A program made the position numbers and the translations under genes. From Amphiscolops sp. MND2022 (Eukaryota), in the NCBI GenBank assembly GCA_964187785.1, contig OZ076409.1:2170001-2234000 (forward strand): 64,000 nt of DNA, written 5' to 3'. Below, one piece after another: positions 35,328 to 59,600 of this stretch; position 1 is the first letter of the stretch, and each line of letters starts with the position of its first letter. Under the pieces are notes generated by a model. It was not told the origin of the DNA. It did no database searches and saw only the letters and a list, made by a program, of their open reading frames with translations.

Positions 35328-36909
35328 GATGGTAGTATAACATCTGATGTGGAGTCAATGCCTTGAGCAAGGAATAGAATGTAGTGCTTAAACTAAAACA
35401 TTGGTTCATTTTCATTTTCGTATCTTAGTCCTCAAATTTATCGTTTCACTGGAAGTTATTCTCATAGTGTCGAAAACGATGTATGTTTTGTGATAAACTG
35501 CATTTTTGCACGAAGATTGAAAAATTGGAAAAAGGGCGTCACATCCAGCTTTTTTGGATATTCACGAGGGACCGTTCTAGTTTTTTCGACTCTCCACTAG
35601 AATATCAAGTATCCAAGAGTTATCAAAATTTCCATTTTCGAAATTTTTGCATCTTGGTTAGTCATTAAGTCTGTCAACGGATTTTGCTTCCCTGCTCAAT
35701 TTTCTTCCACTTTCTCAGCTGTTTTTTGCCCGCTGCATCTAGACTACTTTTTCTGAGTCACAGGCTATAGTAACAAAATTTGGTTTTTGTACTCTATGGC
35801 AAGTTTCTTTTATGGCAGGTTCTTCGTAAAACACACCAAAATGATTCATTTCACAATTTACACAGGCGACGCAATAGGAGCCAAAGAATCCGAATGTTAC
35901 AGTTACTAAGTGTTTTTTACAGCGGACGTTTCCCGAGAAAAAGTTTTTTCTCCAGTTGCGCTCAATGTAAATGTTCGTGGTCCGGGTCATCTCCCCCCAA
36001 CCTCTTCCGCCTCCATCGGGGAGGGCCCTGAGTGGCGGCTCCATGTTCAGAAAACTTACGTTATAAAACGACCCCTCAAAACAACTATCTCGAAAACGAG
36101 CCCTACGATTTGGCTGAAATTTTGCAATGCGGCTGCAGAATTCCGATACAAGGACAAATCCCTACCATTTTTCTGTCTATAGCCAAAATGTTGGTCAAAA
36201 ATGACAATTTTTGAGTGAAAAATGGTCATTTTTCAACTCTGAGCGGCTATAACTCCTTCCAGGGGGCTCGGAGCGATACCGTACCGGACGGCAATATTGT
36301 TCAGCGCTTCAAGTAGAACCTGTAGATGTATTTTGGTGCCATTCGGATAAAAATTGATTGAGTAATAGCCGCAAACCTGCCAATTTTTGCCCAAATTTTT
36401 TTCGAGATCTCCTAAAGGCCTCCCCTGGCCGAACTACCTCCCAGCAAAACCATTTGGCCCTTTTGCCGCAGTTTCAGCGTTCCCGCATTCACCGGGTAAG
36501 AGATAAATGACTTAGAATTTTATTTCCTCGAAAAATTAAAAAAAATTCTTCAATCCTCCCAAAGTCCAGAAACTTCCACACAACTAGTATTGCAAGTGGA
36601 TGCAAGTGGAAAGTACTCGGATAGACAAGAAAAATGGGCTATAAAACAGCTCTGTAGCTTAACCTGACGTTGACTTATGACATTTTGAGTGTGTGCTTGC
36701 TATGTGGTAAGCTTAAAATGGAAGCTAAGTATCATCCAAAACTCATCGGAAAGCGTTCAATCAACCCCAGAGCTGTCTAATTCCCGCTGTTTAGTGCAGC
36801 AACAGTGTTTAAGGCCTTTTGGCCCCTTTTTGGTAAGTTTTGAAACCGTCTTTTCCTTCGAATAGCACAAAACAGTTACGTACATTCTATCTCCCTTTCG
36901 GAGAAAATT

Positions 36910-37340
36910 TTTTCCTTATGGGTTGACCAGACGCCCAAGTAGGTCTGGCACGCTTTTCGGCACCGCGTTTCCTGAAGCCGCTGAGATAGGTAGGTTGTTT
37001 CTTGTAAAAATTCACTCGAAAATTGTTTTCTTATGGGTTGACCAGACGCCCCAGTAGGTCTGGCACGCTTTTAGGCACCGCGTTTCCTGAAGCCGCTGAG
37101 ATAGGTAAGTTGTTTTTTTGGAAAAATTCACTGAAAATTTTTTCTCATGGGTTGACCAGACGCCCAACTAGGTCTGACACGCTTTTCGGCACCGCGTTTC
37201 CTGAATCCGCTGAGATAGGTAAGTTGTTTTTTGTGAAAATTCACTCGACACTTTTTTTCTCACGCGTTGACCAGACGCCCCAGTAGGTCTGGCACGCTTT
37301 TCGGCACCGCGTTTCCTGAAGCCGCTGAGATAGGTAAGTT
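36910..37340. repeat. ~115-bp tandem repeat, 4 copies, with an internal palindrome
   Basis: gttgaccagacgccc(a/c)agtaggtctggcacgcttttcggcaccgcgtttcctgaagccgctgagataggt at ~36922, 37037, 37151 and 37266. Confidence 0.92.
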
Positions 37341-37925
37341 TAAAGAATTTTCATACTCTGCGTTTTAAGGTTGCGTTTTTAGGCTCAAGTTTTTTTCATA
37401 GAACTAGCTTTCTCCACAATTAAGTATGTAGGTTAAGTGTAGGTTTTAAACCGATATTAAGTGGGAGTGAATTGACTAATAGATTATCGTGTATTTTGTT
37501 TTTTATCAGGGACAGCAACGACGAAGAAAATGGTAGTAGATTGACGCAGCATGTTTTATCAGTTGAATAATACACTATTTATTTCTTTAATTCATCTATT
37601 GAAGAGTTTATTCTTGTTAATTGAAACCTTTAAAACCGAATCTTTTTCTAATCCATTTCGCATTCTTTCGAATATCATTACTTCTTCATCAAATGCTTAT
37701 ATATATTTCTTTGGTGTTGCTTTTTTCCATTTTCCATGGCGAGCGACGGTCTACCGATACAATGGTGGCCAAATGCTCCGAAATGCTTCTTTATGTCTTT
37801 GGTGTTGCTTTTTTTTCATTTTCCATGGCGAGCGACGTTCTACCGATACAAAGGGTGGACAAATGCTCTGAAACAGTTGCATAAATTTCTATTGGTATTA
37901 AAGATTTCCTCATTTTTTGAGAACA

Positions 37926-38593
37926 ATGCAAACAACTGAGAATATAAACGCCAAGTCGTTCCTTGTCGAACAAGTTTTGGACGCAAAACCCTTACTTATA
38001 CTTGCGGACAGTTTGCTATGGGGTTTTCGGATGTCTGAAGCGGATCTCATTTCCATAAAAGGCGCTAGACCTCAAGATATTCAACAGTTTCTACTTAATA
38101 ATCAAGTAGCCCTCAACGGATATAGAGCCATAGCAGTTGTTTGCGGAGGGAATTGCTATAAAGAAAAAAAGAAGAATGACATTAGGGCCAAACTGTTCGC
38201 CATTTCGTGTTAGTAATTGTTTTCTTTACTCAAAACTAATTCAATTTTTTCATTACAAATTTCGATATAGAGATTTAAAGATTGATTCACTTTAAAATGT
38301 CATTTAGTTCGTTTTCAGGCTTACGGTCTGCTGATCGATTTACCCATTTACTGATGGAGCAATCCACCGGTCGGATCAAAATAATTGGCGTGCCACCGCG
38401 CCATGATGGCACGAATGAATCAATCGACAAATTAAATTCGTTGTTAAAACTCGATCGAGGATTCGGGTACAAGTACATTGGAGTGTCATGCTCCCTTAGC
38501 AATGAAACCGTCCTCGGTCAAGACAAAGTCCATCTGGAAGCTGAGGGCAAATCCAAGTTAAAGAGAGTAATCAAGAACAAGATAATATGTTAG
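37926..38593 (+). CDS. SGNH/GDSL hydrolase-like gene, two exons (intron 38209-38318), probably transposon-borne
   Basis: Block I ILADSL, block II SIKGA, block III VVCGGN, GVPPR, block V DKVHL. GT...AG intron; the spliced frame is open. Confidence 0.7.
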
Positions 38594-39191
38594 TTTTTCT
38601 CCTTCTCTTTATTTTTCATGATAGAACATTGTTTTTATCATTTCTTTCATCACAATTATTTTCGAACTAATACCATTAAACTTTCTGTTCTATTATTTAT
38701 AGTAAGTACATTTTGTTTTCACAGTAAGATACCTTTGATTCAGCGAGTTATCTTCTATGATTGAACTTCTATGATTGTCCTAATGATTGAACTTGATAAA
38801 TGACTGATACGTTGCTTCTGATACTGCCTGAATATTATTTTGCTTCACTTCATTTGTATTATTCCTCATCATTGTAAATAACTTTTGCTAGGCTTCAATA
38901 AATTTGTCTCTGTTGATAAACTATGTTTCGTATTCAAAACAAGAGTGTAAGGCGGATTTCCAGCTGTCGGAGTTGACTTTTTCTGCACACAGGTAATGTT
39001 TGGTAACAGGTTACGTCTGGTAAGTTTGCGGGTAAAGCAGCGAATGGTTTCATCACTGATCGACGGACAGCGTGGTCAGTGATTAGGTGTTCAGAATATC
39101 GTGTCTATTAAAAAGCAGCGAATGAAGTGCATTTCTCTGGTGATGTCTAACACAACAGTTTTTTAAGATTTGATTTGATTCAACTTGCAAT

Positions 39192-39460
39192 ATGCCACGC
39201 GGAAGAGAAAGGAAAGCCAACAAATCTAGAAAGTGTGCAGTTCACAATTTGTTTCTGGCGAGAGATGGTGTGTGTGTAAGATGTGTGACAGAGGTGCAGC
39301 CGACGGATCGAGATGTTGAGTTAGACGATGTTGTTAATCCCCCAATTCCCCCAGATCCCCCTATTGGCGTAGAGATAGCAGAAGTTGAAACGACAACTAT
39401 GGAGATGTGTGAGATGTGTGAGAAGTGTAGAAGAACGTCAACAAACAACTACAGACTTTT
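39192..39460 (+). pseudogene. Possible truncated N-terminus of a related Rep-helicase ORF (Cys clusters)
   Basis: MPRGR..KCAVH..CVRC..CEKCRRTST parallels MPPKR..CTAC..CSRC..CSCCFRIST at 41625; both follow an SGNH copy. Confidence 0.45.
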
Positions 39461-39800
39461 TAATAATGGCTATTCAATAATCCATTTAACATTCTTTCGA
39501 ATATCGATTTTTTTTCATTGCCCTGGCGAGCGGTGGTCTACCGATACAAGAGTGGCCAAATGCTCAGAAATGCTTCTTTATTTCTTTGGTTTTGCTTTTT
39601 CTCCATTTTCAATGGCGAGCGACGGTCTACCGATACAAGGGTGACCAAATGCTCTGCAAGGCTTCTTCATTCTTTGGTGTTGCTTTTTTCTCCTTTTTCC
39701 ATGGCGAGCGACGGTCTACCGATACAAGGGTGGCCAAATGCTCCAAAATGGTTGTATAAATTTCTATTGGTATTAGAGATTTCCTCATTTTTTCAGGACA

Positions 39801-40480
39801 ATGCAAACTAGTGAAATAAAAAATTCAATGTCGTTCCTTGTGGAACAAGTTCTCGAAGCAAAGCCTTTGCTCATACTCAGCGACAGTCTGCTGTGGGGTT
39901 ACCGAATGGCGGAAGCTGATTTGATATCGATAAAAGGCGCAAGACCTCAAGATCTGCAACAGTTTTTAAAAAGAAATGAAGTAGCCCTCAACTAATATAA
40001 AGCCCTAGCAATTGTTTGTGGAGGGAATTGTTTTAAAGATAAGATGAAGAATGGCGTCATTAGGCCAAACTGTTCGCCATTTCGTGTTAGTAATTGTTCT
40101 CTTTACTCAAAACTAATTCAATTTTTTCATTACAAATTTCGATATAGAGATTTAAAGATTGATTCACTCTAAATTGTCCTTTAGTTCGTTTTCAGGCTTA
40201 CGGTCTGCTGATCGATTTAGCCAATTTACTGATGGAGCAATCCACCGGTCGGATCATAATAATTGGCGTGCCACCGCGCCATGATGGCACGAATGAATCA
40301 ATCGACAAATTAAATTCGTTGTTAAAACTCGATCGAGGATTCGGGTACAAGTACATTGGAGTGTCATGCTCCCTTAGCAATGAAACCGTCCTCGGTCAAG
40401 ACAAAGTCCATCTGGAAGCTGAGGGCAAATCCAAGAGAGTAATCAAATTAAAGAGAGTAATCAAGAACAAGATAATGTTA
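39801..40480 (+). pseudogene. Second SGNH hydrolase-like copy (intron 40086-40195; premature stop 39993-39995)
   Basis: Paralog of 37926-38593; the downstream half is nearly identical. Confidence 0.7.
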
Positions 40481-41000
40481 GTTTTTCTCCTTCTCTTTAT
40501 TTTTCATGATAGAACATTGTTTTTATCATTTCTTTCATCATAATTATTTTCGAACTAATACCATTAAACTTTCTGTTCTATTATTTATAGTAAGTACATT
40601 TTGTTTTCACAGCAAGATACCTTTGATTCAGCGAGTTATCTTCTATGATTGAACTTCTATGATTGTCCCAATGATTGAACTTGATAAAGGACTGATACGT
40701 TGCTTCTGATACTGCCTGAATATTATTTTGCTTCACTTCATTTGTATTATTCCTCATCATTGTATATAACTTTTGCTAGGCTTCAATAAATTTGTCTCTG
40801 TTGATAAACTATGTTTCGTATTTAAAACAAGAGTGTAAGGCGGTTTTCCAGCTGACTGAGTTGACTTTTTCTGCACACAGGTAATGTTTGGTAACAGGTT
40901 ACGTCTGGTAAGTTTGCGGGTAAAGCAGCGAATGGTTTCATCACTGAACTTTTTCATTACAATTTTCGATATAGTAATTAAAGATTTATTCACTTTTCAG

Positions 41001-41291
41001 GCGTATCGCCTGCTGATTGATTTGGCCAATTTCCTGATGGAGCAAGCCACCGGTCGCGTTATAATAATCGGCGTGCCACCACGCCATGATGGAACAAATC
41101 TATCGATCCAAGAACTAAATTACTTGCTGTCACTTGATGAAGGTTTCGGCTACAAGTATATTGGAGTCGCATGCTCACTAAGCTATGAAACCGGGCTCGG
41201 TGATAACAAAATTCACCTCGAAGCTGAGAACAAGTGCAAGTTTTCACAGCACTACACCTTCAATTCAGGGAGTTTTCCTCTATCCTCATGA
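41001..41291 (+). pseudogene. Third, diverged SGNH copy (exon 2 only)
   Basis: ttttcag|AYRLLIDLANFLMEQATGRVIIIGVPPRHDG...NKIHL. Confidence 0.7.
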
Positions 41292-41624
41292 CTGAACTTA
41301 AGAAAGACTGATACGTTGCACTTATTACTGCTTGATTATAATTTGCTTCATTGCATTTATAATATTCTGTCATCATTGTATATAACTGTTGCTAGCCTTC
41401 AAATAAACTTTTCTCTGTTCATAAACTATGTTTCGTATTTAAAACAAGAGTGTAAGGCGGTGTTCAGCGGAAATTCGTGTTTTCAATACGGTATTCCCCA
41501 CACTTTTTTGTCAAACTGGATATGAGTTGTGATTTTTTGGGTTTCAACATAAACATTATCGATATGTCGTTCCAGATTGCTTTGATACTGCTATTCAAAC
41601 CAAACGCATTCCTCGAAGTCAATA

Positions 41625-44600
41625 ATGCCTCCTAAACGAAGAATATTGAACAAATGTACCGCATGCGGAAGAATAATTAAAGGTGACAGATGTTCCCGTT
41701 GCGATGAGACTCAACAATTTAATGACGATGTATTCGAAGTTTCTGTTCTACCATCTACCCTGGAATATCAAACCACAATGAAAGACATTTGCCCAGAAGA
41801 TGAAACGTGTTCTTGTTGTTTTCGAATTAGTACTATTTTTTATCCCTTGCAGTTTACATTTATTCAATCGAATACCATTATACGACGTCATTTTACTCCT
41901 CTTCTAAATTCTGATCGTGTTACACTGTGTCATATCTGCAACAACTATTTAAATCCACTCTCGCCACAATTTAAACACACTCGTCACTTCAAATTTGCTT
42001 GGCCATCTGTATTCTGGCAACTGCTGAAAGATCAAACGACGACGACTTTTTGGAAATTTTTGCCGTTTGAAATGAGGATTAGTTGGCTCAATAAAACAGC
42101 GTGCAATGAGGAAACATTTTTTAAAAACATCGACTTAGTTACGAAACCTGTATTTTTTGATGTCTAAGCGGATCGAGTCCTTCAATCAGTTCAAAATTAC
42201 ATGGAAGCTTAGGGATATGATAGAAAACGTCGACCGAGAATATTTTCCGTCCATAAAATGTCCTGTAGGATGTGAAGAATTTATTGACGAGTACAAGACC
42301 ATCGACTTTGTTCATTACCTTGGAAAGATTTTCCCGTCCTTCAATCAAATCAATTCCCAGCCGAACGAGTTTTCACGAGGCATGCGACCCGACTATCAAC
42401 AGCACGATGCACTCTTCCCCAACGATATACAGTCTCCCTCTAAACACCCTTCTTTATTAGTGAACGATAGCGGAGTGTTTTTGTTAACTTGTAGGGATCA
42501 CGGTGTTAAAATCAATAAGCAATATATACATTCACCAGAGCATACCGCAGGTAGGGTTTTCAGTCCATTTGCTGATCGTTTTGCTCAGCTGTCTTGAATA
42601 CAAGAACTATGAAACCTTTCAGAGTAAACTATTCAACAGCTTCTTACAAAATGTTCAAGCTTGATGTTTCTTTTGCCGGTTTGAATACTTGTTTTTTGTC
42701 AGAAAATAGGGTTTTCGACAAAGTTTCGAACGAAAGTGTTGATCATGAGACGTTTTATTCACATCAGAGAAAAGACACACAAATAGTTCTGAAACAGTTT
42801 GTTGCTCAAGGATTGTTGTCTCAAAAAACAGCCGAAGAATTGTTGAACTTCAGGAATGAAAAATGGTTGTAAATGGTTGACCACTTGAAAATTTTTTCCA
42901 TTTTGTTCCCCTCGAAACAGTTACCTTCATGCGGCGTATCAATGATCTAAAGGAACAACCATTACCAAGTGGTTGCTGAACCCGAAACGGAAGTTCTCCC
43001 GCAAGAAGATAATCTTGACCATGAGTTTGAGGGACTAAGTTCCGCAGCGGATCAAGCTTCTGCAAATGCGAACAATGTTTCTTCAGAGGAAAATAGTGTA
43101 AAAACCGTCATTGAATGGGATAAGTTTGAATATTCCTGTTTAAAAGTTATGGATCGTAAATTCGGAGCGCAAGCTAAAACCTATCTTGTAGGAAATACCA
43201 AGGAAAAAATTGTAATCGATTTGACTGCTAATTCGGTTCTCTTTCTCAGTAATGTTATCACTTGCCATCTCGCTCGCCATCAAATGTGTTGGACAATTTT
43301 GAATTGTTTCACAAAAAATGAAACAGCGAATAAAAATTTCAAACAAGCTCAGACTCTTGGAACGAAATCTAGAAAACGCTTCTTTGTATGATATGTTTAA
43401 TCTTCTTCCATGTGTTAACGTTATCAATAATCATTCAAGGAACACGCCCTTGGATTCTTCGATGATCGTTCGTGAAAAAAAAGACTTCCAGGTCTTCATA
43501 GCTTTTTCTGGAACAAGTTCCTCATTGCCGCCACAGGATGTGATCGAAGTTGATGATCGATCGTTTCGTTTAGTTTACGTTGTCGAAGATAAATTGAACG
43601 CCAAGTTTTTCTTACGTTACAAATTTTGCAAAGGTTGGCGGAATATTTGTAACCCGGGTCGCCCAGTCGACACGCGTGATACCGACATTTCCAACTTACT
43701 GCAAAGAAATTCTTGGAAAATCGCAATTTTTGAAAAGTTGACTCTGATCTTTCGATAAAAGAGAAAAACATGTCAATTGCGAATATCTGCGGTCAAAACT
43801 TAGCTTTTGCAGCCAACACAAGTTACCTTTGGCTTGTGATTTTCCCAAAAATCCTTGACTCTGTCAAATTGATGACAATTGTATCCGTAAATCTGCGTGG
43901 AGATGCCCCGAAGAAAATTAAGAAAGTGCTTTGTGCAAATCACATATGGCAGGGATCAATGAAATAAGACTGGTGACTCCTTTTGCAGCAAAAATCGGAA
44001 TTCCAACCTCGTTTCCTCAAATAAAATGGAAACGATTTCTGATGAATATGAATCGCTCGAAAACGATGAGGATTTTAATTTTGATAGCAACAAGCCCAGC
44101 AACTTGGTTGATGTTCCTGTTGATTCAGGAATTGTTGAAAATTTTGAAATTCAGGAAACTAATGCCGGTGCTGAAGCTGTGCAATACAACTCAAATGACG
44201 ATTTGAAGACAATAGGGAGCCATGTGATCCTAAATGCTGTTTGTTCTCTTTTAAATAGACCAAGCAATCCAACGCATTTCAAAAAAAAAAAAGAATGGCG
44301 TTTCCTCCAGTCTTTCATTTCCAAATGTCCCGGCGAAAGTGTTCCGTTAACATTCCCGGAAGCTGTTTTGTTCCCTTCGTTGTATTATCAGACTGGGGAG
44401 GGTTCGTTTTGTGGCGCTGTTTCGTCTTTTTTGTTTGCTCCTTTTAATTGCAACGTGTTCAACAATTTTGCTGATATTTTGTCTCTCGTTTGAAATTTTT
44501 TTCTCTTCTTACATCTAGTGACCCGAGGATGATTCAGTTCTTTTTTGATTGTTTTCTGAATTTCAATATGATTTGTAGGGATTCCAGGTTTGTCCTCAAT

Positions 44601-47600
44601 CGTGGCCTGCAAGAACTTTCAGACATTGACAATGAAAAATGCGGGGCTCAAATACGAAGGAATGAAGAAGATAGCAGGAAAATAGTAAATGAGTTAGCTT
44701 CTGCTATTAGATCTGAAAAGCCTACGTTTTTTTGACTTTGACATTGAATCAGTCAAGAATGTTCGGTGTTGCGCCACTTTATTAACTTTTACAGAAAAAC
44801 ACTGAAAATATGGAACGTGGAAAGCGCCGAATTTTCATTGAAGTATTCATGCCACTTTTTGAGACTATGGGAAAGGGCTGCCACGTTTTTCTTTAAGTAT
44901 ATAGAGTTTTCTGCTGACAAGCCCCTCGGGACAATCACAAAAAATTTTCCACGATTTGAGTTCCAGACTTCTAAAGGTAACGCGCCTCATTTACATATAA
45001 TTCTTTGGACACAAGAAAAAAAAGCGATCCTTTAATTAGGAATAAAATTGCAGGGTCATACAGGCAGTTACTTCGTGAACTTGGACTTGAAAAAGTCGAT
45101 ATAAGCAATCCATAAGCAAAAGCTACGTTGAGCCACAGTTGTCAAAAAGCAGAATTCCGGTGTCATAAAAAATGCGACAGCAGTGGCAAAACTGTTTGTA
45201 GATTTAAAATATTTGAACCGTCCAATAAAACTTTTTTAAAACTAATTGAAAGACCACATTCTGAAGAGGCTGGGGAAATATTCAACGAATGGGGATTAGC
45301 AAAAGCAGTTGAGGGGGATACCAAAATTTGTATGAGTTGTCCAACGAGATGCAAGATGGTAAGTTCATTTATGCCGCTGATTTCGGGGAGACCTTCTCGC
45401 CTGTAGTAACGAAGATTTTTTCAGTTGTTCAGTGTAGCATGAATTGTCTACTTTGTGATACAATTATTTCATCAGCTTATTTAGCGAAATATGCAGCTGG
45501 TGTAGAAGAACATGCTGAAGTTAACAGCGGGGGAAAATCAAATGACACTGAGTCTGTTACCGTTAAAAGAATGAAAAACATCAAAATAGCAGGAGCCCAA
45601 ATAGCGGCTAAAAATGAGAAAGAATGCCGAATTCTATCCTCTACTGAAAGCATCTGGTCAATTTTAGATCTGAAATATGTCTTTACGACGTACACGTGCG
45701 TTCACGTCAACACAAAACCCTTGGAGAACAGGGGAGGTGTCGTTCGAAGGAAGTCACATAGGCGTATCGTTGACCGCCCCGGGCAATACGATTCGAACTT
45801 ACAATTTGTTAACTACCGCAATACCTCACAATTAGATACATTCCGACATTTCACTGCTAATCAAGTTCGTACGGTTAAAGAACATTTGAAATCTAACCTT
45901 CCCATAGGACAAAGCGTCTTTGTTTGCGGTGCGACCATCTGAGCTTCTTTTTGTTAACGATTTGGAGTTTTACTTCAGGCATTTTCGTTCACAAAGATAA
46001 AGGAAGCGATGTTGCATGAAAAATTAACTGAAACATTGGGTGAAAGTGGTTGGATAGATGGTGTTGGGAATCTTGTCAAAGTTCGCGGCTTTTCTGTAGA
46101 AACATTCAAGGACCTTCTGGCCAAAAGGAAATTTGACTCCTGTACCAAATATAGTTATGTTGCATCCTTTTACTTGGATTTGTTTTCTAGTCCCGATGCC
46201 GCTCAATTTCTCATCGACAATCGTCCTGAATTCAGAAAACCAGCGGTTGTTGTTCTACCGAATGTAATTCCAAAGCATGTACCTAACTTTCTTATTAGTC
46301 TTCTTTTACAATTTGGTAGGTACGAAACAGAGTTTGACTTACATGAGGGGGGAAATATTGCTACCGCTTACCAAGCTGGAGGTTTAATGAGGAATGCTAA
46401 TTCTGTTACGATTGACAAAGTTGAAAGATTTTGAAAGATTTTGTTTTGAAACGCGTTGTCTTTGTCCCGGGTTCTCATGTGTCACAGGATAGACAGGTAA
46501 TAGACGCCAAGTTAGCTCTTAGCGCTTTGTTGAACAATAACGAAGATGAAATTGAAACACCTACCATTGTTTACCAAGCTTTACAGGAGCAATGTACTGA
46601 CGAATTGAACCAGTCTGTTTCAAACAAATTTCACAACGTTAAAGTTCAATTACACAAATTAATAGGAGATACAGAAAAGCTTATAACCCATTGGCTAGTA
46701 GAGACTTGAATATCAATGATAAACAGCAGGTTGTTATGGCTTCTTTGATGAATTCAGTTGATAAATTTTTAAGTTCTTCCAGATTTGTCAAACATGTTTA
46801 TTGTGGGAATGCCAGGGTCGGGTAACATTTTTGTAATAAATCATCTTCTTCTTTACGTTATGTGCAAAGGATTGATTGTCACGGTCACTTCCTTGAGCAG
46901 TGAACGGTCCATGCAGTTTTCTGGTATACATATACATGATTTGTTCTGTCTTCCGGTTTCCAATTCCAATATTGTTGATCAAATTGTACAGAAAGCTCTT
47001 AAAAAGTTGACATTTGACTCAGCAAAACTAACAGTGCTTAAAAGGTAGGATGTGATTAATTTTGAGGAAATTGGTTTGATTTGTGCGGAGGAGTTTGCCG
47101 CCATTGATTTGATTCTTCAAAGCGTTCGAGATTCGTTTCTTCCATTTGAAGGTGTTCTAATTTGCGCAACAAGAGACCCGAAAAAATTAGCACCTCCCCA
47201 TGGCAGACTAATTTGGACTTCACCCATTATGTTCACATGTGTCCGAATGTTTGCTCTTAAGAACTGTGTGCGAATGTTAGATTTAATTGGTCCAATTTTT
47301 GATCATGTTGTCTTCACCTAAAATGACTGACGAAGTTGAGAGCATTTTGGAAATTTTCAAAAACCATTGTAATTTTTGCCCACTTGACGACAGCCCTCTT
47401 GACTCTGTACGTATTTTCGCTACTAGAGCTGCTGAACAAAAGGCTATTGAACATCATATAAAACGTTTCTTCGGCAGGTTTGAGCGTTGTTGAGATTGCA
47501 AGTTTAGATGAAGTGAAATCGAATCCTACAAGTAACTGGAAAAAAATAACAAATAATAAAATTCTCATCCGATTATGCTTAGAACCTGAAACGTTATTTT

Positions 47601-48582
47601 GCTATAAAAATGCTTTGATGCGAATAACCTGCAATTTACCACTTTTGAGTGTTTCACAAGGGCGAGTGTGTGTTTTTAGAAGTTTTGACGGTGCTAATAA
47701 AATTGAAGTAGTTGTTGCACCGCCTGGTGTTAGGAAACTACCACGCCTAAACGATAGTGGCGAATATGGCCTCCTTGAGAATGGTTGGTTTACAATTGTA
47801 CCCCACAAACAGGTCGGTTTTGTGCACAGCTACAAGGGGTCGTCAATGAGGAGAACACAGTTCCCGCTCAAAAATTTTATGGCGATGACAATTCATAAGG
47901 CTATCGGTGCAACAATTGGGAAGGTTGTACGAAAAATTGATTGTTTCGAACGGGAATATTGTCTCTGGGAAAAAGAACAATTGTACGTTCTTGTAAGTCG
48001 TGTCCAAAATTTGAATGATTTGACTTTCGTGGGGGATAAAGAAACAACGTTAATCACAAATAAACGCCTGTTACGTCAAACTGCTCAATGGGACGAAAAT
48101 ACTGATAAATTGGTTGAAACAGCGTGTAACCAAGCCCCAGTTGTCTTTGATCTCGCGAGTACATGTCCCTTCAAACCTCGTTAAGTTGAAATACCACCAG
48201 GAGACGTTGGGTTTGTTTACCTCCTGGTGAGCACCAAGGATATTTCGGTATCTTACGTTGGTGAAACTTGCAACATCAAGCGTAGATTACGTGAGCATAA
48301 TTCGGGCAATGGTTCTTTTTTGACAAACAAAAGACATCTTAGGCCTTGGGGAGTGCTTTGTTTTGCTACGGGTTTTTCTGACGACTAACGTACAAACCAA
48401 ATTCAGTGCAAACGTTTGAGTCAAACATTCATGATAAAATGTTTTTTTTTTGTTAAATGTTCACAATGGTTTCGGTGCCCCAAGTCAAGTTAGTTTTGGA
48501 AATTTACATTAAATGCGTGGAGGATTTTATTGTTGAATGTGAGGGTTTACGCGTTGTTGTCACTGGGAAAATGGTTCAGTAG
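41625..48582 (+). pseudogene. Helitron/Helentron-like Rep-PIF1 helicase with a C-terminal GIY-YIG domain (decayed)
   Basis: Rep motif 1 PTFF.TLT (~44721), HUH motif RFEFQTSKGNAPHLHIILW (~44950), YLAKY (~45478). PIF1 motifs GMPGSG, FEEIGL, RRTQFPL..AMTIHKAIG, LYVLVSRV. Then GFVYLL..YVGET..RRLREHN. Confidence 0.9.
48185..48430 (+). pseudogene. GIY-YIG (SLX1-like) endonuclease domain
   Basis: My translation VEIPPGDVGFVYLLVSTKDISVSYVGETCNIKRRLREHNSGNGSFLTNKRHLRPW is in the same frame as helicase ORF 47480-48184, separated by one TAA. Confidence 0.85.
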
Positions 48583-49801
48583 GTTTCAGTTGATACCACA
48601 AAGCTCTACCATATGATTGAGGGTGGGCGCTGTGGATTAATTTTCTTTGTCCACTTCTTTTAGCTGTGGTCTCTATTGAAAGAGTAAGTTGTTGTTTATT
48701 GGAGTCATTGTCTAAAACTTAAGCTGTTTTCATTAACAAAGCTCTACTATCAAACGGTGGGCACCGTGGATTGAACAGCTTCATTTTTATTGTTCATTCA
48801 GATAGTCATTATATTTTAAAAAATATTACCAAGAGCTGTGTCAGTAAATGTCATAAGCTTCAGCTGTTTTGCTTCAGAAAGCTCTACTGACTAAGGGTGG
48901 GCATCGTAAAATAAGCAGTTTAGGTTGTGACAGTTCCATCTGACACTCTCAGAATTTCAAATTACAATCGGTTTATTATAGCAACTTATGGATCCCTACA
49001 AGTTTCTGCTTGATTTATTCCATTTTTTGTAAAACAGTTTGATTTTAAAACTGAATTCATTGTAGTTTCACACATTGTCAACTATTGTGTTCTGTTGGAA
49101 GTTGTTACAATTCTTATTCAACTGTTCAAAACTCATCATCATGCAACATTGAGTGTCAATTTAAACTACCGTTAACTAATTTAAATTTTTCTCCTTGTTT
49201 AGTGTATACTGTTTTCAATAACACAAGTTTGTTCAAAGTATAAATCCGAGTGATTTGTTTCGAAGACATTTTGTCGAAAAGACCATTATTAATGTTTGTG
49301 CGTGCTTCGATTCATATATTTCTCATCATGACTGCAATGTAATGATGCTACCCGATTGTGGACTATGGTTGGAAAAGCGCAGCATCAAAAAAATAGTGCA
49401 TCATAGCCTAAAGAAGATTAAATCGCTGTTAGGGCTGTGTGTGCGCGCGACCTATCGCTTTTCTTTCCACTGTTCCTGTCAATTATTGATTCTTCTCAAT
49501 GGTTTGGTGATATTAACACTATATAATTAGGTTTTGTTCATTTGAATTATTGGTCGCAACAATGAGATTGTCCCAACAAACAGCACCAACAATTCTCTTA
49601 AACAGTGAAGACCATGACTTTTTAATAGATGATCTCTGTCATACAAATAATACCATGCAACAGATAGTTTCCGCAGAAGGAACATCAATTGCGATTTGTA
49701 AACGTCCTAGTGTTTAATCATCCAGTAACAAACGGTTCATTTGATTAATAATTTACACAAACATTTAACGTCTACTTATTCATGTCGTTGGGTGTTGCAT
49801 C

Positions 49802-49977
49802 TAGATTATACATTGTCTTTTGATCCGTTTGTTAATTGGTGACTTAGTAAAACGTTCCCTCCTACACTCTTTTCGTACCTCGTTATAGATAGATTATACA
49901 TTGTCTTTTGATCCGTTTGTTAATTGGTGACTTAGTAGAACGTTTCCTCCTACACTCTTTTCGTAACTCGTTATAAA
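49802..49977. repeat. 88-bp direct tandem duplication
   Basis: tagattatacattgtcttttgatccg... at 49802 and 49890. Confidence 0.9.
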
Positions 49978-50475
49978 ACCAACCGTTATGCAAACATTGT
50001 ATTAAATGTATTCTGATTAATACAATGTTAAATTGTGCATATTGTAATTACTATTTTAAAATCAAATGTCCAGTTTCAATTTACACTTCTAATGTCCGCG
50101 TTTCATTGATCTTCTTTGCTTTTTCAACATAATAGTGGTCAGTTGAAGTCCACATTCATGATATTATGGGCCCTCCTGATAAATCTGTCAGCAAACACTA
50201 GGATACGTCAACTCTACGAATTTCATTATAAGTATTTTCTTGATTCCTTCAGACAATTTTAGAATCAATTGCAATTCAGTTAAGAACTTTTGTATAATTT
50301 GACTTTTCTCGTTTCACAAAGACTAAAAAGTGACTGTTTTTGACTCGTTTTGACTACTTTCCTACAAGATACCTTAAAATAAAGATCAGTTTTGAAGCTT
50401 TGAAGATTTTGATGATACAATTGACGGTCGCTATCGAATGATATTAACAGTTCTTTTCGGCAACTCAGTAGAACC

Positions 50476-51534
50476 ATGAATTCAGCATTACCTACCTCGT
50501 TGAATCTCAATGCATCAACTGAAATGTCCCGAGAATATCAAGAGATGAACTTTTTTGATTTCGAGAGTGGAGAAGATTCCGAGGACAAGAAAAAACTAGC
50601 TATCTTTTTGCACGGTAAACGGCTAGTCGAACCTGTCAAATATCAAGCTAAAATGTTGGAAAGGGACCTTCGAATTCGAAAAACAGTCGTTCAGTCTTCC
50701 TACGACGGTTTTTTTTGTTTGGTGATGTGGAGTTTAATAAAGTGTTAGCACTTTTTGCTGCCACCGATAAAGAAAGCCGGGTGCTAACAAGATACCACAC
50801 CCAAATGTTCCCAGGATGTTGTGTGGCTATTATCGAGCCACGTATGAAAGGTGTGATGATAGACACTACCAACATTCTCATCACCACCACTGAGCCATTT
50901 ATCCCTTTGAAAAAATGTTGTCCACTAAGACAAAACGTATTGCCGCCATATGACCTCAGCAGTGAGTCCGACATGATATGGTTCCACTTTGTCACAACGT
51001 CCTTCAGTTTGAAACTTCCGGTGCCAACTGTGGATCTCTGTTCTGGCCATTTTTGTGATGATCAAGGTGCAGGCAGCTCACTTTGTGTTTGTGTGGAAAA
51101 AAACAGGTTTACCTGAGTGGGGTATACGCTATTTAATTGCATGTAATGAGCTGGACATGACGCGAACAGCCCATCAAAAATCGACTTTCATAAGCGTCAA
51201 GTTCTCGAAGCTTTGCGTCGAGAACCACAATTTCAATGAGCCACAAGATTCATCGTTTCAGTTGATAACATTCAGGCGCAATTTAAGGGAATTTATCAAT
51301 GGAATAAACAATCTTCAAGACAGTGCAGGTTTTGAGGTTATGGGCTGGTTCAAACCCTCCAAGCAAGACGGCGAAAGTTTTCCCGAGGTACACGAGTACC
51401 ACATCATTTCAATAACGCCCTTGGTAAATCCGCTCCCTGATTCTGTGATGCTCCTTCGACACCCCAGGCCACCACGAATAGAGTCACCCAACGCCCCATC
51501 TGTTACTGCTTCCGTCGCCACAACTTCAAACTAA
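50476..51534 (+). pseudogene. Frameshifted ~350-aa Cys-containing ORF of unknown function downstream of the Rep-helicase
   Basis: Three overlapping ORFs (50476-50748, 50715-51116, 51055-51534) can be joined at homopolymer runs; contains CSGHFCDDQG..CVC. Confidence 0.55.
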
Positions 51535-52812
51535 TAAATTACAAAGGTCTACCGTTAGGGAGGTCATGGTGGTTGAAGAAAAACTAGATTCAGTTCCTGA
51601 ACATTTTTGATTATTTTCTGTCATCTTTTGATTCGTTTTACAAAAACTAGTGTAAGTTTAAGCACTTGTTTCTGCATTTAGTGCTAAGAGTTCATTGTGA
51701 ATTTACCAATACCATTTAACATTTGATTGTTTATGTTACGTTGTTCTTTTCCAATATCACAATGAAATAAATAGAAAAATTTTGAAACTTATCATTTTGT
51801 TTGTTCAGTATTAGGGTTTGTTCAGTATCAATCATTCGAACTACCTTTTTCAACTTTGACATCTTTTTAATCTCTAAATAGTAAATGAGTTATAGTACTG
51901 ACAAAGCAAACGTTGTGATTAGGTTTTTTTAAATACTTTGTATTTTTGCAATTATTTAGTCACGCCCACTTCAGGAGGCAAAAAAACATTTGTTGAAAAA
52001 TTAGAAAAATTCTATTTCTTGATATTATTCAAGTAATTACAATTCTTTTCCACTCCATTCAGTTCTTCTCCGGCTCTTCCTACCCTTCCTCCTCATTCTC
52101 CTCTTCCTCGTACTCCTTCTCTCACGGTGCTAGTAACACACAAGCCTGCAGCGCTAGATGGTGCTCAGAATTGATTTTCCTGTGAACTAATCATTATTAG
52201 GTGTTGTGAAATTTCAATGAAAAACCGTTTCACATTTTCACATTCTAATAGAAAGCCGACATAAATGGGGGCAATAATTCAGATATGCGAGAACAGCTGT
52301 CATGCACTCTTGGAGAAAACTGTTGAGTTTTTCTCAACAAAAAGACATAGATTTGGGCGATTGTGACACACAGTACCACCAAGGAGAGTTGTGGAACAAA
52401 CCTGCGAACCGCCATCAAAATCAATTATCAAACCCTCTGAAAAGAAATATTCCACTTTGAGAAGTCACATTTTATCATAATCGATGGCACCCATTTCATC
52501 AAAAAAAATGTGCAATTTCGAAGAAATCAAGTGGAAGTTCAATGGGGTAGCATATTTGAGGCCCGAAGCTAGTGTAATTTGAGGCCCGATCAATTCAGTG
52601 ATTATTAGCGTCAGATGATATTATTTAAGCCAGTATGTATTGAAATTGATTAATTTGAAGAGGTTAGCATATTTGTTGTATGGCTCGGTCGCTTCGCTCC
52701 CTTCGCCAAGTAGCAACATTGAGGCATGGCCATAGGGCACGTCGCTCCGCTTCGCTTCGCTTCTGCATTTAGGGCACTAGGAGTATGTGAATATAGCTGA
52801 CTACGTTATAAT

Positions 52813-54525: not shown

Positions 54526-56197
54526 TAATATTTGGCAAAATCATGAGTGCATTTAGTGATTTGGTTGCCTTTGATAGGAACTATTTATTCGACTTGGACG
54601 CTACTTCGGAGGTGGATTTGCAAAACTTCAACAGTGCGTCGTTTGCCTTATCTGCTGAAGAAGTTGGGCATCAAACCCATCCATCAATTGACTAATCGAA
54701 CCATTAAGTAGAAACATCAGTTGACCAATCGAACCGTCGAATCGATTCAACAGAAGGGCGGAACATTTCGTCTAAAACTTCCAAATCTGATTCCTCGTCA
54801 GAACGCGAGGGCTCGTCCGAGCGTGAGAAGTCTCTGTTTGTAGCTGACCCCAATGGGAGAGCAGACAAAAGAACCTTTCGGAAGCCCAAACGACCCAATA
54901 TTTATTTTTGTTCGATGTGCGAAAGAGCTTGTTGATTAGATGATAAATCACTTGAACAACTCACACAACCTCCAGATTGACCCCAGGATCAAGCGCTCCA
55001 TTAGCACTTACTTTTCGACACTATTAACAAAAAGAAATGCTATCAATGTCTATTATGTATGGAACGAATGGGATTGAAACAAACCCACATCATAAACTTG
55101 ATTGTATGTTTGATCGACAGAATGTGAAGCTTTTCCCTATTGATATACATCTTTCTCTCAAAAAGTCTAGTGAAGCTAGTGGTATTCAATTTGAAGAAGT
55201 CGTACATCAGTTTGATCAACACATGCAGGGATTAGCTTACATCACCCGTAATTCAGGTTCGATTCTCACTTTCTGCTTGATTGCATCTTTTGAAGTAAAA
55301 ATGCAATCGTGGAATGTAAAGTGGAAAATGTAATCGGTGCACTGACAACAGACATAGCCATGCCAATGGTGGAATTCAACGATGCTGACTTCTCGGATGC
55401 GGGGTGGAAACTGCATTTATTAGGACCTCAAGACTCAGCTGCAGTTTTCTGCTTGGCCCGCCACACAATAGAGGAAAGTCCCGTAGATGGTGAGGCACTG
55501 AATATAACGTGTCTCAGCATCATATGGGTGAAAGCAGTTGCCAACACTACTGCTTCTGCAGCAGGGATGCTGGTGATGGGGGGTTTGATTTATTGGGACT
55601 CCAATTAGGTCAAAAAGCAGCTGAGCCTGGGATCAATACCGAACGTTCCCATGAGGTAAGGTGTAAAATGACCGATCACTTTTCCACATTGAGAACTTTG
55701 TGAGAAACTGTGAGTACCAAAGTCTAGTCAAGGAAACGAAAGGATACTGAAGTAAGACTTCTCAAACTTCTTTGAGGATCGAAAACATTTCTGAATTTTT
55801 GCGGCCACTTGATAGTGAAATTTCAGCATTTTTTTGAAAGAGCTAGAATCAAAGAGAGTTGCAATGGTTTCGATGAAAATGAGAGCTGATGGTAGTATGA
55901 CATCTGATGTTGAGTCAATGTCTTGAGCAAGGAAGAGCATGTAGTGCTTACACTAAAACATTGGTTCATTTTCGTTTTTGTATCATAGTCCTCAAATCTC
56001 TCGTTTAACTGGAAGGGTTTCTCACAGTGTCAAAAACGATGAATATTTTGTGACAAACTGCATTTTTGCACGAAGATTGAAAAATTGGAAAAAAAGGCGT
56101 CACATTCAGCTTTTTTGGATATTGACGAGGGCCCGTTCTAGTTTTTTTGACTGTCCACTAGAATATCAAGTATCCAAAATTTGGGCAATAAATTTAA

Positions 56198-56638
56198 TCC
56201 TAATGGACCTGGGCATTTTTGCAAAAATTCAAAAATTCGGATTGAAAATTTTAAATAATTAATATCTCCACAACTACGCGTACCAGAGAAACGAACCATA
56301 GTGCGTTTGAAAGGTCTGGTATTGGGCTTTCATTTTGGTCAGGTGTTTGTTGTGCAAGTGTAGGGTTGTTTTTGGTATGGGTCAAGATTTTTTGAGAAAA
56401 CTGGATTTCGCCAAAAACTGAAATTTAGAAAAAAGTAACAATTTTTTTGCAAAAAAAACTTGATTTTCTCAGTTTTGGAGACATATTTATTCTTCCTAAT
56501 GCTTGCTCCATCCAAATCAGTCTATGTACCAATGAACTGTTGAGTACAAATTGTGCTAAAGGATATGGGCTGCTGGCAAAAGGAATCAGAAATTGAAAAA
56601 TGGTAGGCTGCTTTAAAGTACCACCAGGTTAATTCGGG
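56198..56638. mobile_element. piggyBac-type MITE (further copies at ~60084-60518 and ~63147-63586; single ends at ~2900 and ~28163)
   Basis: TTAA flanks; TIR (c/t)cctaattgacctgg / ccaggttaattcggg. Confidence 0.7.
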
Positions 56639-59600
56639 TTAACTCTCTGCGTGAGAGATGTCCACCTTTCAACAATATGAAATTTCTATAGTATAGGTTC
56701 CAGTAACAATTTTTTGTGGCTTCCCAAAATTTTTATGGCGTACATCAACAGCTTCTTTGAACTACAAATAAACTTTAACACACATTGTTTTTGAACATGA
56801 GTCATCGTTATTCTCAATAGGTGTCTGATTTTTACACACTTACTTCACTTGGGGCCATACCTTTCTGGGCATTAGACCATGCACGAGTATTGCCTTATTC
56901 ATTGACATCGAACATTGTTTCCGAGTGATAGAACAAAACGAGGAGAATGATGTCAAACGAGTCTTGAATATTGTTAGTCTGATTTGAAATAGGCAAAAAC
57001 TTCTACGAAACTTCCAAAAGAAAAGACCTGAGTGATGAATTGATGAAAAACATACGCTTAAAAATAGGATTCATGTGGGTTTTGGCATGCTTCCACACAA
57101 ATCTGCTGAAGGTTTCATTGGAATAACTATTGAAACAATTTTTTTGAAAATTACATTCAATGAAAAACCGTTTCACCTTTTCACAATCTAATAGAAAGCC
57201 GACATAATTGGCGGCAAGAATTCAGATATGCGAAAACAACAGTCATGCACTCTTGGAGGAAACTTGAGTTTTTCTCAACAAAAAGACATAGATTTGGGCG
57301 ATTTGACATCCACAGTACCACCTAGGAGTGTTGTGGAACAAAGCAGCGAACCGCCATCAAAACCAATTATCAAAGCCTCTGAAAAGAAACATAGCACTCT
57401 GAGAAGTCCCATTTTATCACCATCGATGGCACCACCCATTTCATCGAAAAAGTTGTAAAATTTCGAAGAAATCAAGTGTAAGTTCAATGGGGTAGCATAT
57501 TTGAGGCCCGAAAAATTCAGTGACTATTAGCGTCAAAGACATTTCGTACAAAATTAAAATAAACAGATTTGCCAAATAGGTCTCAAACAACAGAATTACT
57601 AGCTTTTAGTGCTGTTACAGCCAATATGTATGGAACTTGATTCAATTGAAGAGGTTAGCATATATGTTGTATGGCTTCGCTCCCTTCGCCACGTAGCAAC
57701 ATTGAGGCATGGCCATATGGCACGTTGCTCCGCTTCGCTTCGCTCGTTTAAGGGCACTAGGGGTATATGAATATAGCTGACTACGTTATAATAAGTGTAA
57801 AAAATTTCGGGCCTCAGATAATATTTCATTATCGAGCTTCAGTTTATCGGGCCTAAATAAACGTTCCCATTCAATGCAAACAAATACCAGACCAAAAAAC
57901 CCTGGTCAAATTTGCCATCCATGTAAGCCAAAAGCAGCAGTCAGGCCAAACAACAGCAATCCAACATCTCCACTTAAACCCCCCGCTTCTAACGCTGAGA
58001 TTCCGCAGTCTGAGGACACAGTATTGGACCCAAGTTCACATCATGTCTTTGGCAAAATCATAAGTGCATTTAGTGATTTGGTTGCCTTTGATAGGAACTA
58101 TTTATTCGACTTGGAAGCTACTTCGGAGGTGGTTTTGAGAAACTTAACAATGCGGCAGCCTTATCTGCTAAAGAAGTTGGCCATCAAACCCAACCATCAA
58201 TTGACTAATCGAACCATCAAGTAGAAACATCAGTTGACCAATCGAACAGTCGAATCGATTCAACAGAAGGGCGGAACAATTCGTCAAAAACTTCCAAATC
58301 TGATTCCTCGTCAAAACGCGAGGGCTCGTCCGAGCGTGAGAAATCTCTCTCTGTAGCTGACCCCAATGGGAGAGCAGACAAAAGAACCTTTCGGAAGCCC
58401 AAACGACCCAATATTTATTTTTGTTCGATATGCGAAAGAGCTTGTTGATTAGATGATAAATCACTTGAACAACTCACACAACCTCCAGAATGACCCCAGG
58501 ATCAAGCGCTCCACTGGCACTTACTTTTCGACACTATTAACAAAAAGAAATGCTATCAATGTCTATTATGTATGGAACGAATGGGATTGAAACAAACCCA
58601 CATCATAAACTTGATTGTATGTTTGATCGACAGAATGTGAAGCTTTTCCCTATTGATATACATCTTTCTCTCAAAAAGTCTAGTGAAGCTAGTGGTATTC
58701 AATTTGAAGAAGTCGTACATCAGTTTGATCAACACATGCAGGGATTAGCTTACAGCACCCGTAATTCAGGTTCGATTCTCACTTTCTGCTTGATTGCATC
58801 TTTTGATGTAAAAATGCAATCGTGGAATGTAAAGTGGAAAATGTAATCGGTGCACTGACAACAGACATAGCCATGCCAATGGTGGAATTCAACGATGCTG
58901 ACTTCTCGGATGCGGGGAGGAAACTGCATTTATTAGGACCTCAAGACTCAGCGACAGTTTTCTGCTTGGCCCGCCACACAATAGAGGAAAGTCCCGTAGA
59001 TGGTGAGGCACTGAATATAACGTGTCTCAGCATCATATGGGTGAAAGCAGTTGCCAACACTACTGCTTCTGCAGCAGGGATGCTGGTGATGGGGGTTTGA
59101 TTTATTGGGACTCCAATTAGGTCAAAAAGCAGCTGAGCCTGGGATCAATACCGAACGTTCCCATGAGGTAAGGTGTAAAATGACCGATCACTTTTCCACA
59201 TTGAGAACTTTGTGAGAAACTGTGAGTACCAAAGTCTAGTCAAGGAAACGAAAGGATACTGAAGTAAGACTTCTCAAACTTCTTTCAGGATCGAAAACAT
59301 TTCTGAATTTTTGCGGCCATTTGATAGTGAAATTTCAGCATTTTTTTGAAAGACAGCTAGAATCAAAGAGAGTTGCAATGGTTTCGATGAAAATGAGAGC
59401 TGATGGTAGTATGACATCTGATGTTGAGTCAATGTCTTGAGCAAGGAATAGCATGTAGTGCTTACACTAAAACATTGGTTCAATTTCGTTTTTGTATCAA
59501 AGTCCTCAAATCTATCGTTTAACTGGAAGGGTTTCTCACAGTGTCAAAAACGATGAATATTTTGTGACAAACTGCATTTTTGCACGAAGATTGAAAAATT

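Follow-up and report, generated by a model that had tools for sequence, protein, structure and literature searches.

A decayed Helitron-like rolling-circle transposon whose transposase carried a predicted second nuclease, of GIY-YIG type, at its C-terminus very probably occupies positions 35977-52157 of the DNA analysed here, a 64,000-nucleotide stretch of the genome of Amphiscolops sp. MND2022 (GenBank assembly GCA_964187785.1, contig OZ076409.1, positions 2,170,001 to 2,234,000 of the forward strand), hereafter called the window. The window copy is an old, dead and decayed remnant of an autonomous element, yet it is complete with defined ends. Judged from the protein sequence of intact copies, its main open reading frame (ORF1) is about 2400-2500 amino acids long and is predicted to consist of a ~1000-amino-acid N-terminal region, an HUH-Y2 Rep, a PIF1-type SF1B helicase and an SLX1-type GIY-YIG domain.

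On the + strand of the window, the region at ~41.6-48.4 kb is a chain of short frames without any long ORF. With the protein of an intact genomic copy (P0001, described below) as tblastn query, residues 51-2367 tiled 41637-48445 (+) in ten pieces and three frames, with at least 8 frame changes, thereby delimiting an ORF1 remnant that covers the N-terminal region, the Rep, the helicase and the GIY-YIG domain. Over 7.7 kb this remnant is 82.4% identical in DNA to the copies on C2 and C3. The same alignment places the Rep HUH motif APHLH at 44982-44996 (+), in line with the HxH of Rep proteins from HLE1 (canonical Helitrons) and HLE2 (Helentrons) elements, and the two-tyrosine motif YLAKYAAG at 45478-45501 (+), in line with YLYKY of the HLE1 reference. 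The helicase Walker A motif is inactivated, reading GMPGSGN at 46806-46826 (+), with Lys changed to Asn, where intact copies have GMPGSGKT, and helicase motif III is degenerate (RDPKKLAPP, at 47175, +). A Pfam scan of the ORF pieces of the window detected GIY-YIG (PF01541) on 48185-48388 with an E-value of 2.5e-9 (37.7 bits, cut-off 22.6) and a weak PIF1 match on 46773-47048 that stays below the cut-off (E 0.006); no Helitron_like_N match above the cut-off was found in these pieces, the Rep appearing as a sub-threshold match only. The GIY-YIG segment is in the same frame as the helicase piece (47462-48184), from which one TAA codon at 48182-48184 (+) separates it. The SLX1-type domain that follows (48185-48388, +) retains its first two thirds and is closed by a second stop at 48386-48388, after GFSDD; read against P0001, the residue aligned with the catalytic glutamate of the family is a serine. 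The initial annotation, made from the letters alone, had described a decayed ORF with Rep, PIF1 and GIY-YIG motifs and a nuclease in frame after a single stop, and the tiling, the motifs and the profile match bear out this description. Its size of ~7 kb fits the span of the ORF1 remnant but not the mobile element, which measures 16,181 bp.

To follow the helicase/nuclease junction through the genome, the window's own assembly (1.07 Gb, eukaryote) was searched with 47462-48582, which gave 22 matches, the window included. The initial annotation had left room for intact copies that keep the stop or lack the nuclease. The results showed instead a sense codon at the TAA position in all 15 other readable copies (AAA in 12, AAG in 2 and AAC in 1, that is, Lys or Asn), with the GIY-YIG segment in the same frame downstream in each. 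Several subfamilies are represented among these 15 copies, whose amino-acid identity to the window is 40-85%. The frame is intact throughout in two copies: L027:1017-8249 encodes 2411 amino acids (P0001) and L030:569-8089 encodes 2507 (P0002), both with the GIY-YIG domain fused in frame, and Pfam profiles match the two ORFs with E-values of 1.1e-12 and 4.1e-15 for PIF1 and 6.2e-4 and 3.7e-11 for GIY-YIG, respectively. A genome-wide PF01541 scan returned 88 matches, 29 of them located in unbroken frames of 2231-2853 amino acids, and a PF14214 scan of the genome found in the same long frames a partial Helitron_like_N match at profile positions 108-190. DNA homology runs unbroken across the helicase/GIY-YIG junction in all full copies, and the dispersed genomic copies differ in age. 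The long open frames that join Rep, helicase and GIY-YIG are strongly clustered in a few chromosome regions (for example C1:73.4-76.5 Mb; C2:102.3-103.9 Mb, at a contig end; C3:2.4-3.9 Mb; C1:2.2-3.6 Mb), several of the clusters being near contig ends, and many of the frames are 2373-2386 amino acids long with near-equal scores, a hint of recent spread.

The fusion extends far beyond this genome. The Rep and helicase part of P0001 (1191 amino acids, with the GIY-YIG domain left out) was used in a phmmer search of 1.84 billion representative proteins, whose clusters are less than 50% identical to each other, and matched 6500 of them at E-values up to 1e-3, 984 at 1e-10 and 309 at 1e-30. A GIY-YIG match to the domain's hidden Markov model (HMM) directly follows the helicase in 112 of the best 150 representative relatives. 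The remaining 38 comprise 35 proteins too short for a verdict, since their sequence does not extend past the helicase, two whose tails look by eye like divergent GIY-YIG domains (GVYM...YVGYSTD...RR..H) and one with a tail of another kind. The ESM Atlas likewise contains clusters of PIF1 plus GIY-YIG proteins, in one of which diatoms are the commonest recorded phylum (4 members recorded). Few relatives carry names, and the named ones are labelled solely 'hypothetical protein' or 'predicted GIY-YIG superfamily endonuclease'. The taxonomic range is thus wide though poorly recorded. These sequence comparisons show the fusion to be ancestral to a large clade and the TAA codon of the window to be a private mutation of that copy.

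The identity of the Rep was examined through relatives and profiles. Three database relatives at ~33% identity (P0011-P0013) combine Helitron_like_N, PIF1 and GIY-YIG, and Helitron_like_N exceeds its cut-off in P0012 (39.9 bits vs 28.9), P0013 and a further relative, P0014. As references from the same genome we used an HLE1 protein of 1320 amino acids (L044, G000:C8:51737300-51743300), with Helitron_like_N at 199 bits and PIF1 at 238 bits, and an HLE2 protein of 2304 amino acids (L045, G000:C1:34707800-34715800), with DUF6570, Helitron_like_N and PIF1. The genome thus holds three kinds of Helitron-like elements, namely HLE1-type, HLE2-type and the GIY-YIG clade; the N-terminus of the HLE2 reference also gives a weak JAB/MPN match. 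Because pairwise BLASTP between clade proteins and these references matches the helicase alone, profiles were built from 30 hand-picked full-length clade proteins, 28 of which entered the Rep profile (two were dropped for poor coverage) and 29 the helicase profile. In hhalign the Rep profile aligned with the HLE1 Rep at a probability of 96.4% (E 1.3e-9) and with the HLE2 Rep at 95.4% (E 1.8e-8), the FTxTxN, HxH and YxxxY motifs being in register with both, and the helicase profile aligned with the HLE1 and HLE2 helicases at 98.1% and 99.2%. Against structures in the PDB, the helicase matched PIF1 helicases (5ftb, E 1.3e-12), and Helraiser (7lcc) was a weak match in the helicase alone (E 1.3e-4).

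The ~1000-amino-acid region upstream of the Rep is conserved in 19 of the 23 clade members tested and is rich in cysteine and histidine. Its profile found no counterpart in the N-termini of the HLE2 (DUF6570 included) and HLE1 references, with hhalign probabilities of 0.2% and 0.1%, respectively. In the L027 copy this region corresponds to L027:1122-4016, the N-terminal 965 amino acids of ORF1, and many of its cysteines and histidines are invariant. UCH-type ubiquitin hydrolases emerged as look-alikes (Atlas score 0.80), a weak lead that we did not use as evidence; in P0014 the N-terminus carries an OTU domain. Pfam scans of 8 clade proteins found neither DUF6570 (PF20209) nor AP endonuclease (PF03372), and scans of the ORF pieces, the intact ORFs and the relatives found no reverse transcriptase family.

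The nuclease was characterised with an alignment (A5) of 22 GIY-YIG domains, 2 from the intact copies of the genome and 20 from database relatives. Gly13, Tyr16, Ser20, Tyr28, Gly30, His42, Thr51, Pro58 and Phe68 are invariant in A5, and Thr32, Asn43, Gly45, Gly47, Trp59 and Glu83 are nearly so (at least 90%), a single Val exception being visible at Glu83. A domain HMM made from 7 of the 8 rows of a smaller alignment (A1, with P0014 left out) was then used to align 118 domains, 7 of 125 having been dropped for scores below 25 bits; the first Tyr is present in 110 of the 118, the second Tyr in 101, the Arg in 97, the His in 104 and the Asn in 115. The best PDB matches of the A5 profile are SLX1 proteins (4xlg 5.4e-15, 7cq2 4.3e-14, 7wme 2.3e-12 and 6seh 5.3e-12), followed by bacterial UPF0213 proteins (1ywl 2.4e-8, 1zg2 7.6e-5), and the clade glutamate aligns with that of FEHAWQ in SLX1. 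For the domain of L030, AlphaFold2 gave a model with a mean pLDDT of 91.9, with which Foldseek returned SLX1 or its plant homologue At-HIGLE in all of the top ten PDB positions (E 7.9e-6 to 4.4e-4), with I-TevI (1mk0) at E 0.76. The PDB titles of these matches refer to 'processing of branched DNA substrates' and 'in complex with 5'flap DNA', and so identify SLX1 as a structure-specific enzyme. By profile and predicted fold the nuclease is therefore assigned to the SLX1 type, and with the catalytic Tyr, Tyr, Arg, His and Glu conserved it looks functional in the family. Like SLX1 (4xlg, 7cq2, 6sei) and At-HIGLE (7wme), it has GxxYLL, YIGxT, RRLxxHN, RPW, GF and FExxW motifs along with the matching fold; unlike them, it is tethered to a helicase within a transposase, with no RING/zinc-finger or SLX4 evident. 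Its tail of ~50 amino acids after the nuclease core has no Cys/His cluster, and no RING or zinc-finger match was found in Pfam. Because of this short tail and the lack of SLX4, the domain is best regarded as SLX1-type and not as an SLX1 orthologue.

The limits of the element could be defined within the window itself, since it sits inside one unit of a local host tandem repeat of ~3.06 kb, which allows filled and empty sites to be compared. This repeat occupies window positions 55888-64000, with units near 59402-60067 and 62466-63131. Two paralogous host units are uninterrupted at the insertion point (60007|60008 and 63071|63072), and the empty-site paralogues of the target were taken as 59930-60080 and 62994-63144 (+). 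The empty site reads ...ATGTTC|ATTGTGCTCAG..., the filled 5' junction ...ATGTTC|GTGGTCCGGG... and the filled 3' junction ...GCAGCGCTAG|ATGGTGCTCAG.... Thus, the whole inserted element, a dead autonomous copy, is 35977-52157 (+), with the form 5'-GTGGTC...CTAG-3', and was inserted between C and A without target duplication. Homology with the C2, C3 and C7 copies runs from about 35977 to about 51977 and beyond. A 3' end at 51977-51980, where the homology to these three copies breaks, was considered and rejected, as the copies continue alike and the terminal motif is further on: a conserved 3' terminal sequence ending in CTAG (52127-52157, +) is 97% identical in L042, in L043 and downstream of the C2 and C3 copies, and all copies diverge just past it. 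An earlier interpretation, in which CTAGGTGGT was a direct repeat of 9 nt present at each end, was replaced by a head-to-tail reading, in which a CTAG end is followed by a GTGGTC start, because the empty site supports the latter. No terminal inverted repeats were found when the 5' 60 nt were compared with the reverse-complemented 3' 60 nt (best score 5, equalled in 499 of 500 shuffles). The copies on C2 and C3 are 14.6 kb long, the extra length of the window copy being due to the triplication of one internal segment. For the L030 lineage the ends were not definable, there being too few close genomic copies.

The element shares with Helitron-like elements an HUH-Y2 Rep, a PIF1 helicase downstream in the same ORF, insertion without target duplication and ends that recur in short units. 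According to the HELIANO report, HLE1 elements start with 5'-TC, end with 3'-CTRR after a hairpin and insert between A and T, HLE2/Helentrons have short terminal inverted repeats and a T^T target, and DUF6570 upstream of the Rep is the marker of HLE2 (PMC11417382). Canonical Helitrons (HLE1; Helraiser, 7lcc) resemble the present element in the pairing of Rep and PIF1-like helicase, the lack of target duplication and a CTRR-type 3' end, which CTAG fits; in contrast to them, the present element starts with GT instead of TC, was inserted at C^A (one insertion) and not at A^T, lacks a significant 3' hairpin and encodes a protein with the ~1000-amino-acid N-terminus and the GIY-YIG tail. The organisation of Helentrons is similar, with one giant ORF in which the Rep is followed by a PIF1-type helicase and a C-terminal second nuclease, with accessory protease-like N-terminal parts (here the OTU of P0014) and with proteins of similar size (2000-2600 amino acids in HLE2). 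However, the second nuclease of Helentrons is an AP endonuclease (Exo_endo_phos) and here it is an SLX1-type GIY-YIG, DUF6570 and AP endonuclease are lacking, inverted repeats are absent, and the target is C^A instead of T^T.

A search with the HLE2 reference passed 146 proteins; among the best 120 of these 146, most have DUF6570 and many have PF03372 or OTU, and PF01541 occurs in none. We then computed a tree with IQ-TREE (LG+C20, SH-aLRT only) from 950 Rep and helicase columns of 24 clade proteins, 24 HLE2 proteins plus L045, and L044 as the one HLE1 protein, the clade and HLE2 members being hand-picked. A branch of length 2.11 with support 100 sets the GIY-bearing proteins apart, and the HLE2 proteins form another group with support 96, in a tree that carries a long-branch warning, includes one HLE1 protein, draws its HLE2 sample from the relatives of one query and cannot resolve sister relations. 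The separation of the GIY-bearing clade from the sampled HLE2/Helentrons and from one HLE1 is thus supported at the level of protein sequence, in agreement with the distinct lineage proposed in the initial annotation. A wider reading, which we put forward tentatively and at somewhat less than even confidence, is that these elements represent a third deep lineage beside HLE1 and HLE2, with an ancestral SLX1-type nuclease fused to the helicase and integral to the element, an N-terminal region of its own of ~1000 amino acids, GT...CTAG ends that lack inverted repeats and a conserved second ORF (ORF2).

Several observations weigh against the view of the window copy as a Helitron-like transposon with an SLX1-type nuclease. 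The window copy, P0001 and P0002 all fall below the Pfam cut-off for Helitron_like_N, so that the case for a Rep in the clade is built on profile alignment and on the relatives. The C^A target site derives from one insertion, and DNA folds of both ends of two copies revealed no significant terminal hairpin (z 0.22 and 1.18 vs shuffles). SLX1 needs SLX4 and a RING domain, and in the present proteins neither partner nor domain was found. In addition, FExxW, the motif of SLX1 and of most clade members, is replaced by LE(R/E) in the subfamily of P0001 and P0002, and P0014 appears to have lost the catalytic Arg and Glu; given this LE(R/E) variant and the degenerate P0014, some lines may be able to do without the nuclease.

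The role of the nuclease can be considered within the Helitron transposition scheme established by work on Helraiser, on which the following steps are modelled. The Rep would nick the top strand at the 5' end of the element and stay bound via a tyrosine, the helicase would peel the nicked strand off 5' to 3', the second tyrosine would cut at the CTAG 3' end, and the freed strand would be pasted into the target without target duplication. Since HUH enzymes act on single strands, the tethered SLX1-type nuclease might supply a cut beyond the reach of a HUH enzyme. By analogy with SLX1, it could cut a branched or flap structure at the donor or the target so that a one-strand insertion becomes duplex, the version that we tentatively lean toward. 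At a lower but still appreciable probability, it could nick the duplex target for entry, as has been proposed for the AP endonuclease of Helentrons. The initial annotation had suggested that the nuclease may nick targets or resolve intermediates.

Other explanations for the GIY-YIG domain have to be weighed against such a role in transposition. It could be a captured fragment of a host SLX1 gene, a passenger without a role in transposition, as its closeness to the host-type enzyme SLX1 and the degenerate look of P0014 might suggest, and as would fit the HELIANO report, where the GIY-YIG of HelenSM92 is called 'captured' and extra domains are said to be often not essential (PMC11417382). This is unlikely because of the conservation of the domain: it stands in the same place, directly after the helicase, in 112 of the best 150 clusters of less than 50% mutual identity, it keeps its catalytic residues, it is in frame in the 29 long open frames of the genome, and the model predicts a whole folded domain and not a fragment. 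Alternatively, the nuclease could introduce breaks through which host repair would be led to copy the element, in the manner of a homing drive, or could act against competing DNA. Many GIY-YIG enzymes are homing endonucleases, and the copies cluster in few chromosome regions; however, the domain belongs to the structure-specific SLX1 type and not to that of I-TevI (by the Foldseek comparison above), no separate DNA-recognition domain follows it in its short tail, and the junctions are Helitron-style with no homing footprint, all of which makes such a drive very improbable.

The remaining alternative, an independent insertion beside a Helitron remnant, had been raised in the initial annotation with Penelope-like retroelements as the example. 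Such elements do carry GIY-YIG endonucleases (PMC6431247), and in the window a stop separates the segment from the helicase frame. The sense codons in 15 of 15 other copies with the same frame, the continuous DNA homology across the junction and the SLX1-type profile have already refuted this reading, to which we attach next to no probability; the predicted fold and the lack of a reverse transcriptase domain in the Pfam scans point the same way. In Penelope-like elements the GIY-YIG domain is likewise fused C-terminally to the main enzyme of the transposon, where it has been proposed to nick the target (PMC6431247), but there it is joined to a reverse transcriptase and here to Rep and helicase. 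The PDB profile and fold searches retrieved SLX1 and UPF0213 proteins and no Penelope-like protein, although a solved Penelope structure may not exist.

Published precedent for a GIY-YIG domain in Helitron-like elements was found in one case. HELIANO mentions it, in one sentence, for a single moss HLE2 family, HelenSM92 of Sphagnum magellanicum, and does not count GIY-YIG among its recurrent extra domains (PMC11417382). HelenSM92 is similar to the present clade in having GIY-YIG beside Rep and helicase and in the size of its autonomous copies (16-18.6 kb vs 14.6-16.2 kb here), and it differs in its HLE2 assignment, the comparison with the clade being by description only (PMC11417382). No other precedent was found in the full-text literature, with Repbase Reports and many subscription journals outside the search; the GIY-YIG of PMC3627910 concerns a Mariner element, and that of PMC6431247 concerns Penelope-like elements and Terminons. 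Thus, GIY-YIG in Helitron-like elements is not wholly unrecorded, and the clade is large, deep and barely described.

The other parts of the element were mapped by comparison with genomic copies and short units. The 5' terminal region (35977-36901, +) is common to non-autonomous units of 1278 bp, with ~80% identity to L042 566-1557 and L043 576-1568, and the element and these units share the start GTGGTC(C)GGG. The units (L042:566-1843 and L043:576-1854) consist of the first ~1 kb of the element and its last 31-36 nt, with 250 bp of unrelated sequence in between. They have at least 100 genomic matches, often in arrays with a period of ~1281 bp (for example G000:C1:73700704-73709279) near long-ORF copies, and in arrayed units GTGGTC directly follows CTAG. 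From this sequence organisation we read them as non-autonomous derivatives in a head-to-tail arrangement.

Between the 5' region and ORF1, the triplicated internal segment (37546-41492, +, as 37546-38955, 39568-40848 and 40950-41492, all matching one C2/C3 stretch) contains remnants of an upstream ORF. The upstream ORF of the L027 copy (L027:122-691) matches window 37992-38183 and 39867-40088 in tblastn, and its motifs GDS, GGN and DxxH are, we presume, of the SGNH/GDSL-esterase kind. Downstream of ORF1, a remnant of ORF2 lies at 50476-51507 (+; tblastn of P0164). Intact ORF2 proteins are 461-471 amino acids long, as in L041:1076-2488 (471 amino acids), with six database homologues and a Cys cluster CxxxxC...CxC; the AlphaFold2 model from 6 sequences had a pLDDT of 30.9 and was unusable, and an RPA-like zinc ribbon is no more than a guess. 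No Pfam match was found for the upstream ORF, ORF2 or neighbouring ORFs. GDSL esterases have been reported in giant Terminon retroelements (PMC6431247). Tandem Repeats Finder also located internal repeats of 115, 89 and 88 bp in non-coding parts of the element (36903-37340, 37691-37873, 39524-39743 and 49802-49975).

The way in which transposons of the Helitron type enter a duplex target and complete their second strand is not yet settled; for Helentrons, an AP endonuclease has been proposed to do this. The elements described here form a clade that is large and old and apparently still codes for protein, and it has a structure-specific SLX1-type nuclease where Helentrons have an AP endonuclease. 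This indicates that a second nuclease was recruited convergently, and the analogy with SLX1 suggests flaps, forks and junctions as the shapes of its substrates. The clade is probably under-annotated in genomes because its Helitron_like_N match is weak or partial, DUF6570 is missing and the names of its proteins are uninformative. For study, the present genome offers intact natural ORFs together with many short derivative units. If the reading as a third lineage is true, the nuclease would be a second catalytic centre for the branched DNA produced by Rep and helicase, and would give an experimental handle on the second-strand and target-entry step of transposition.

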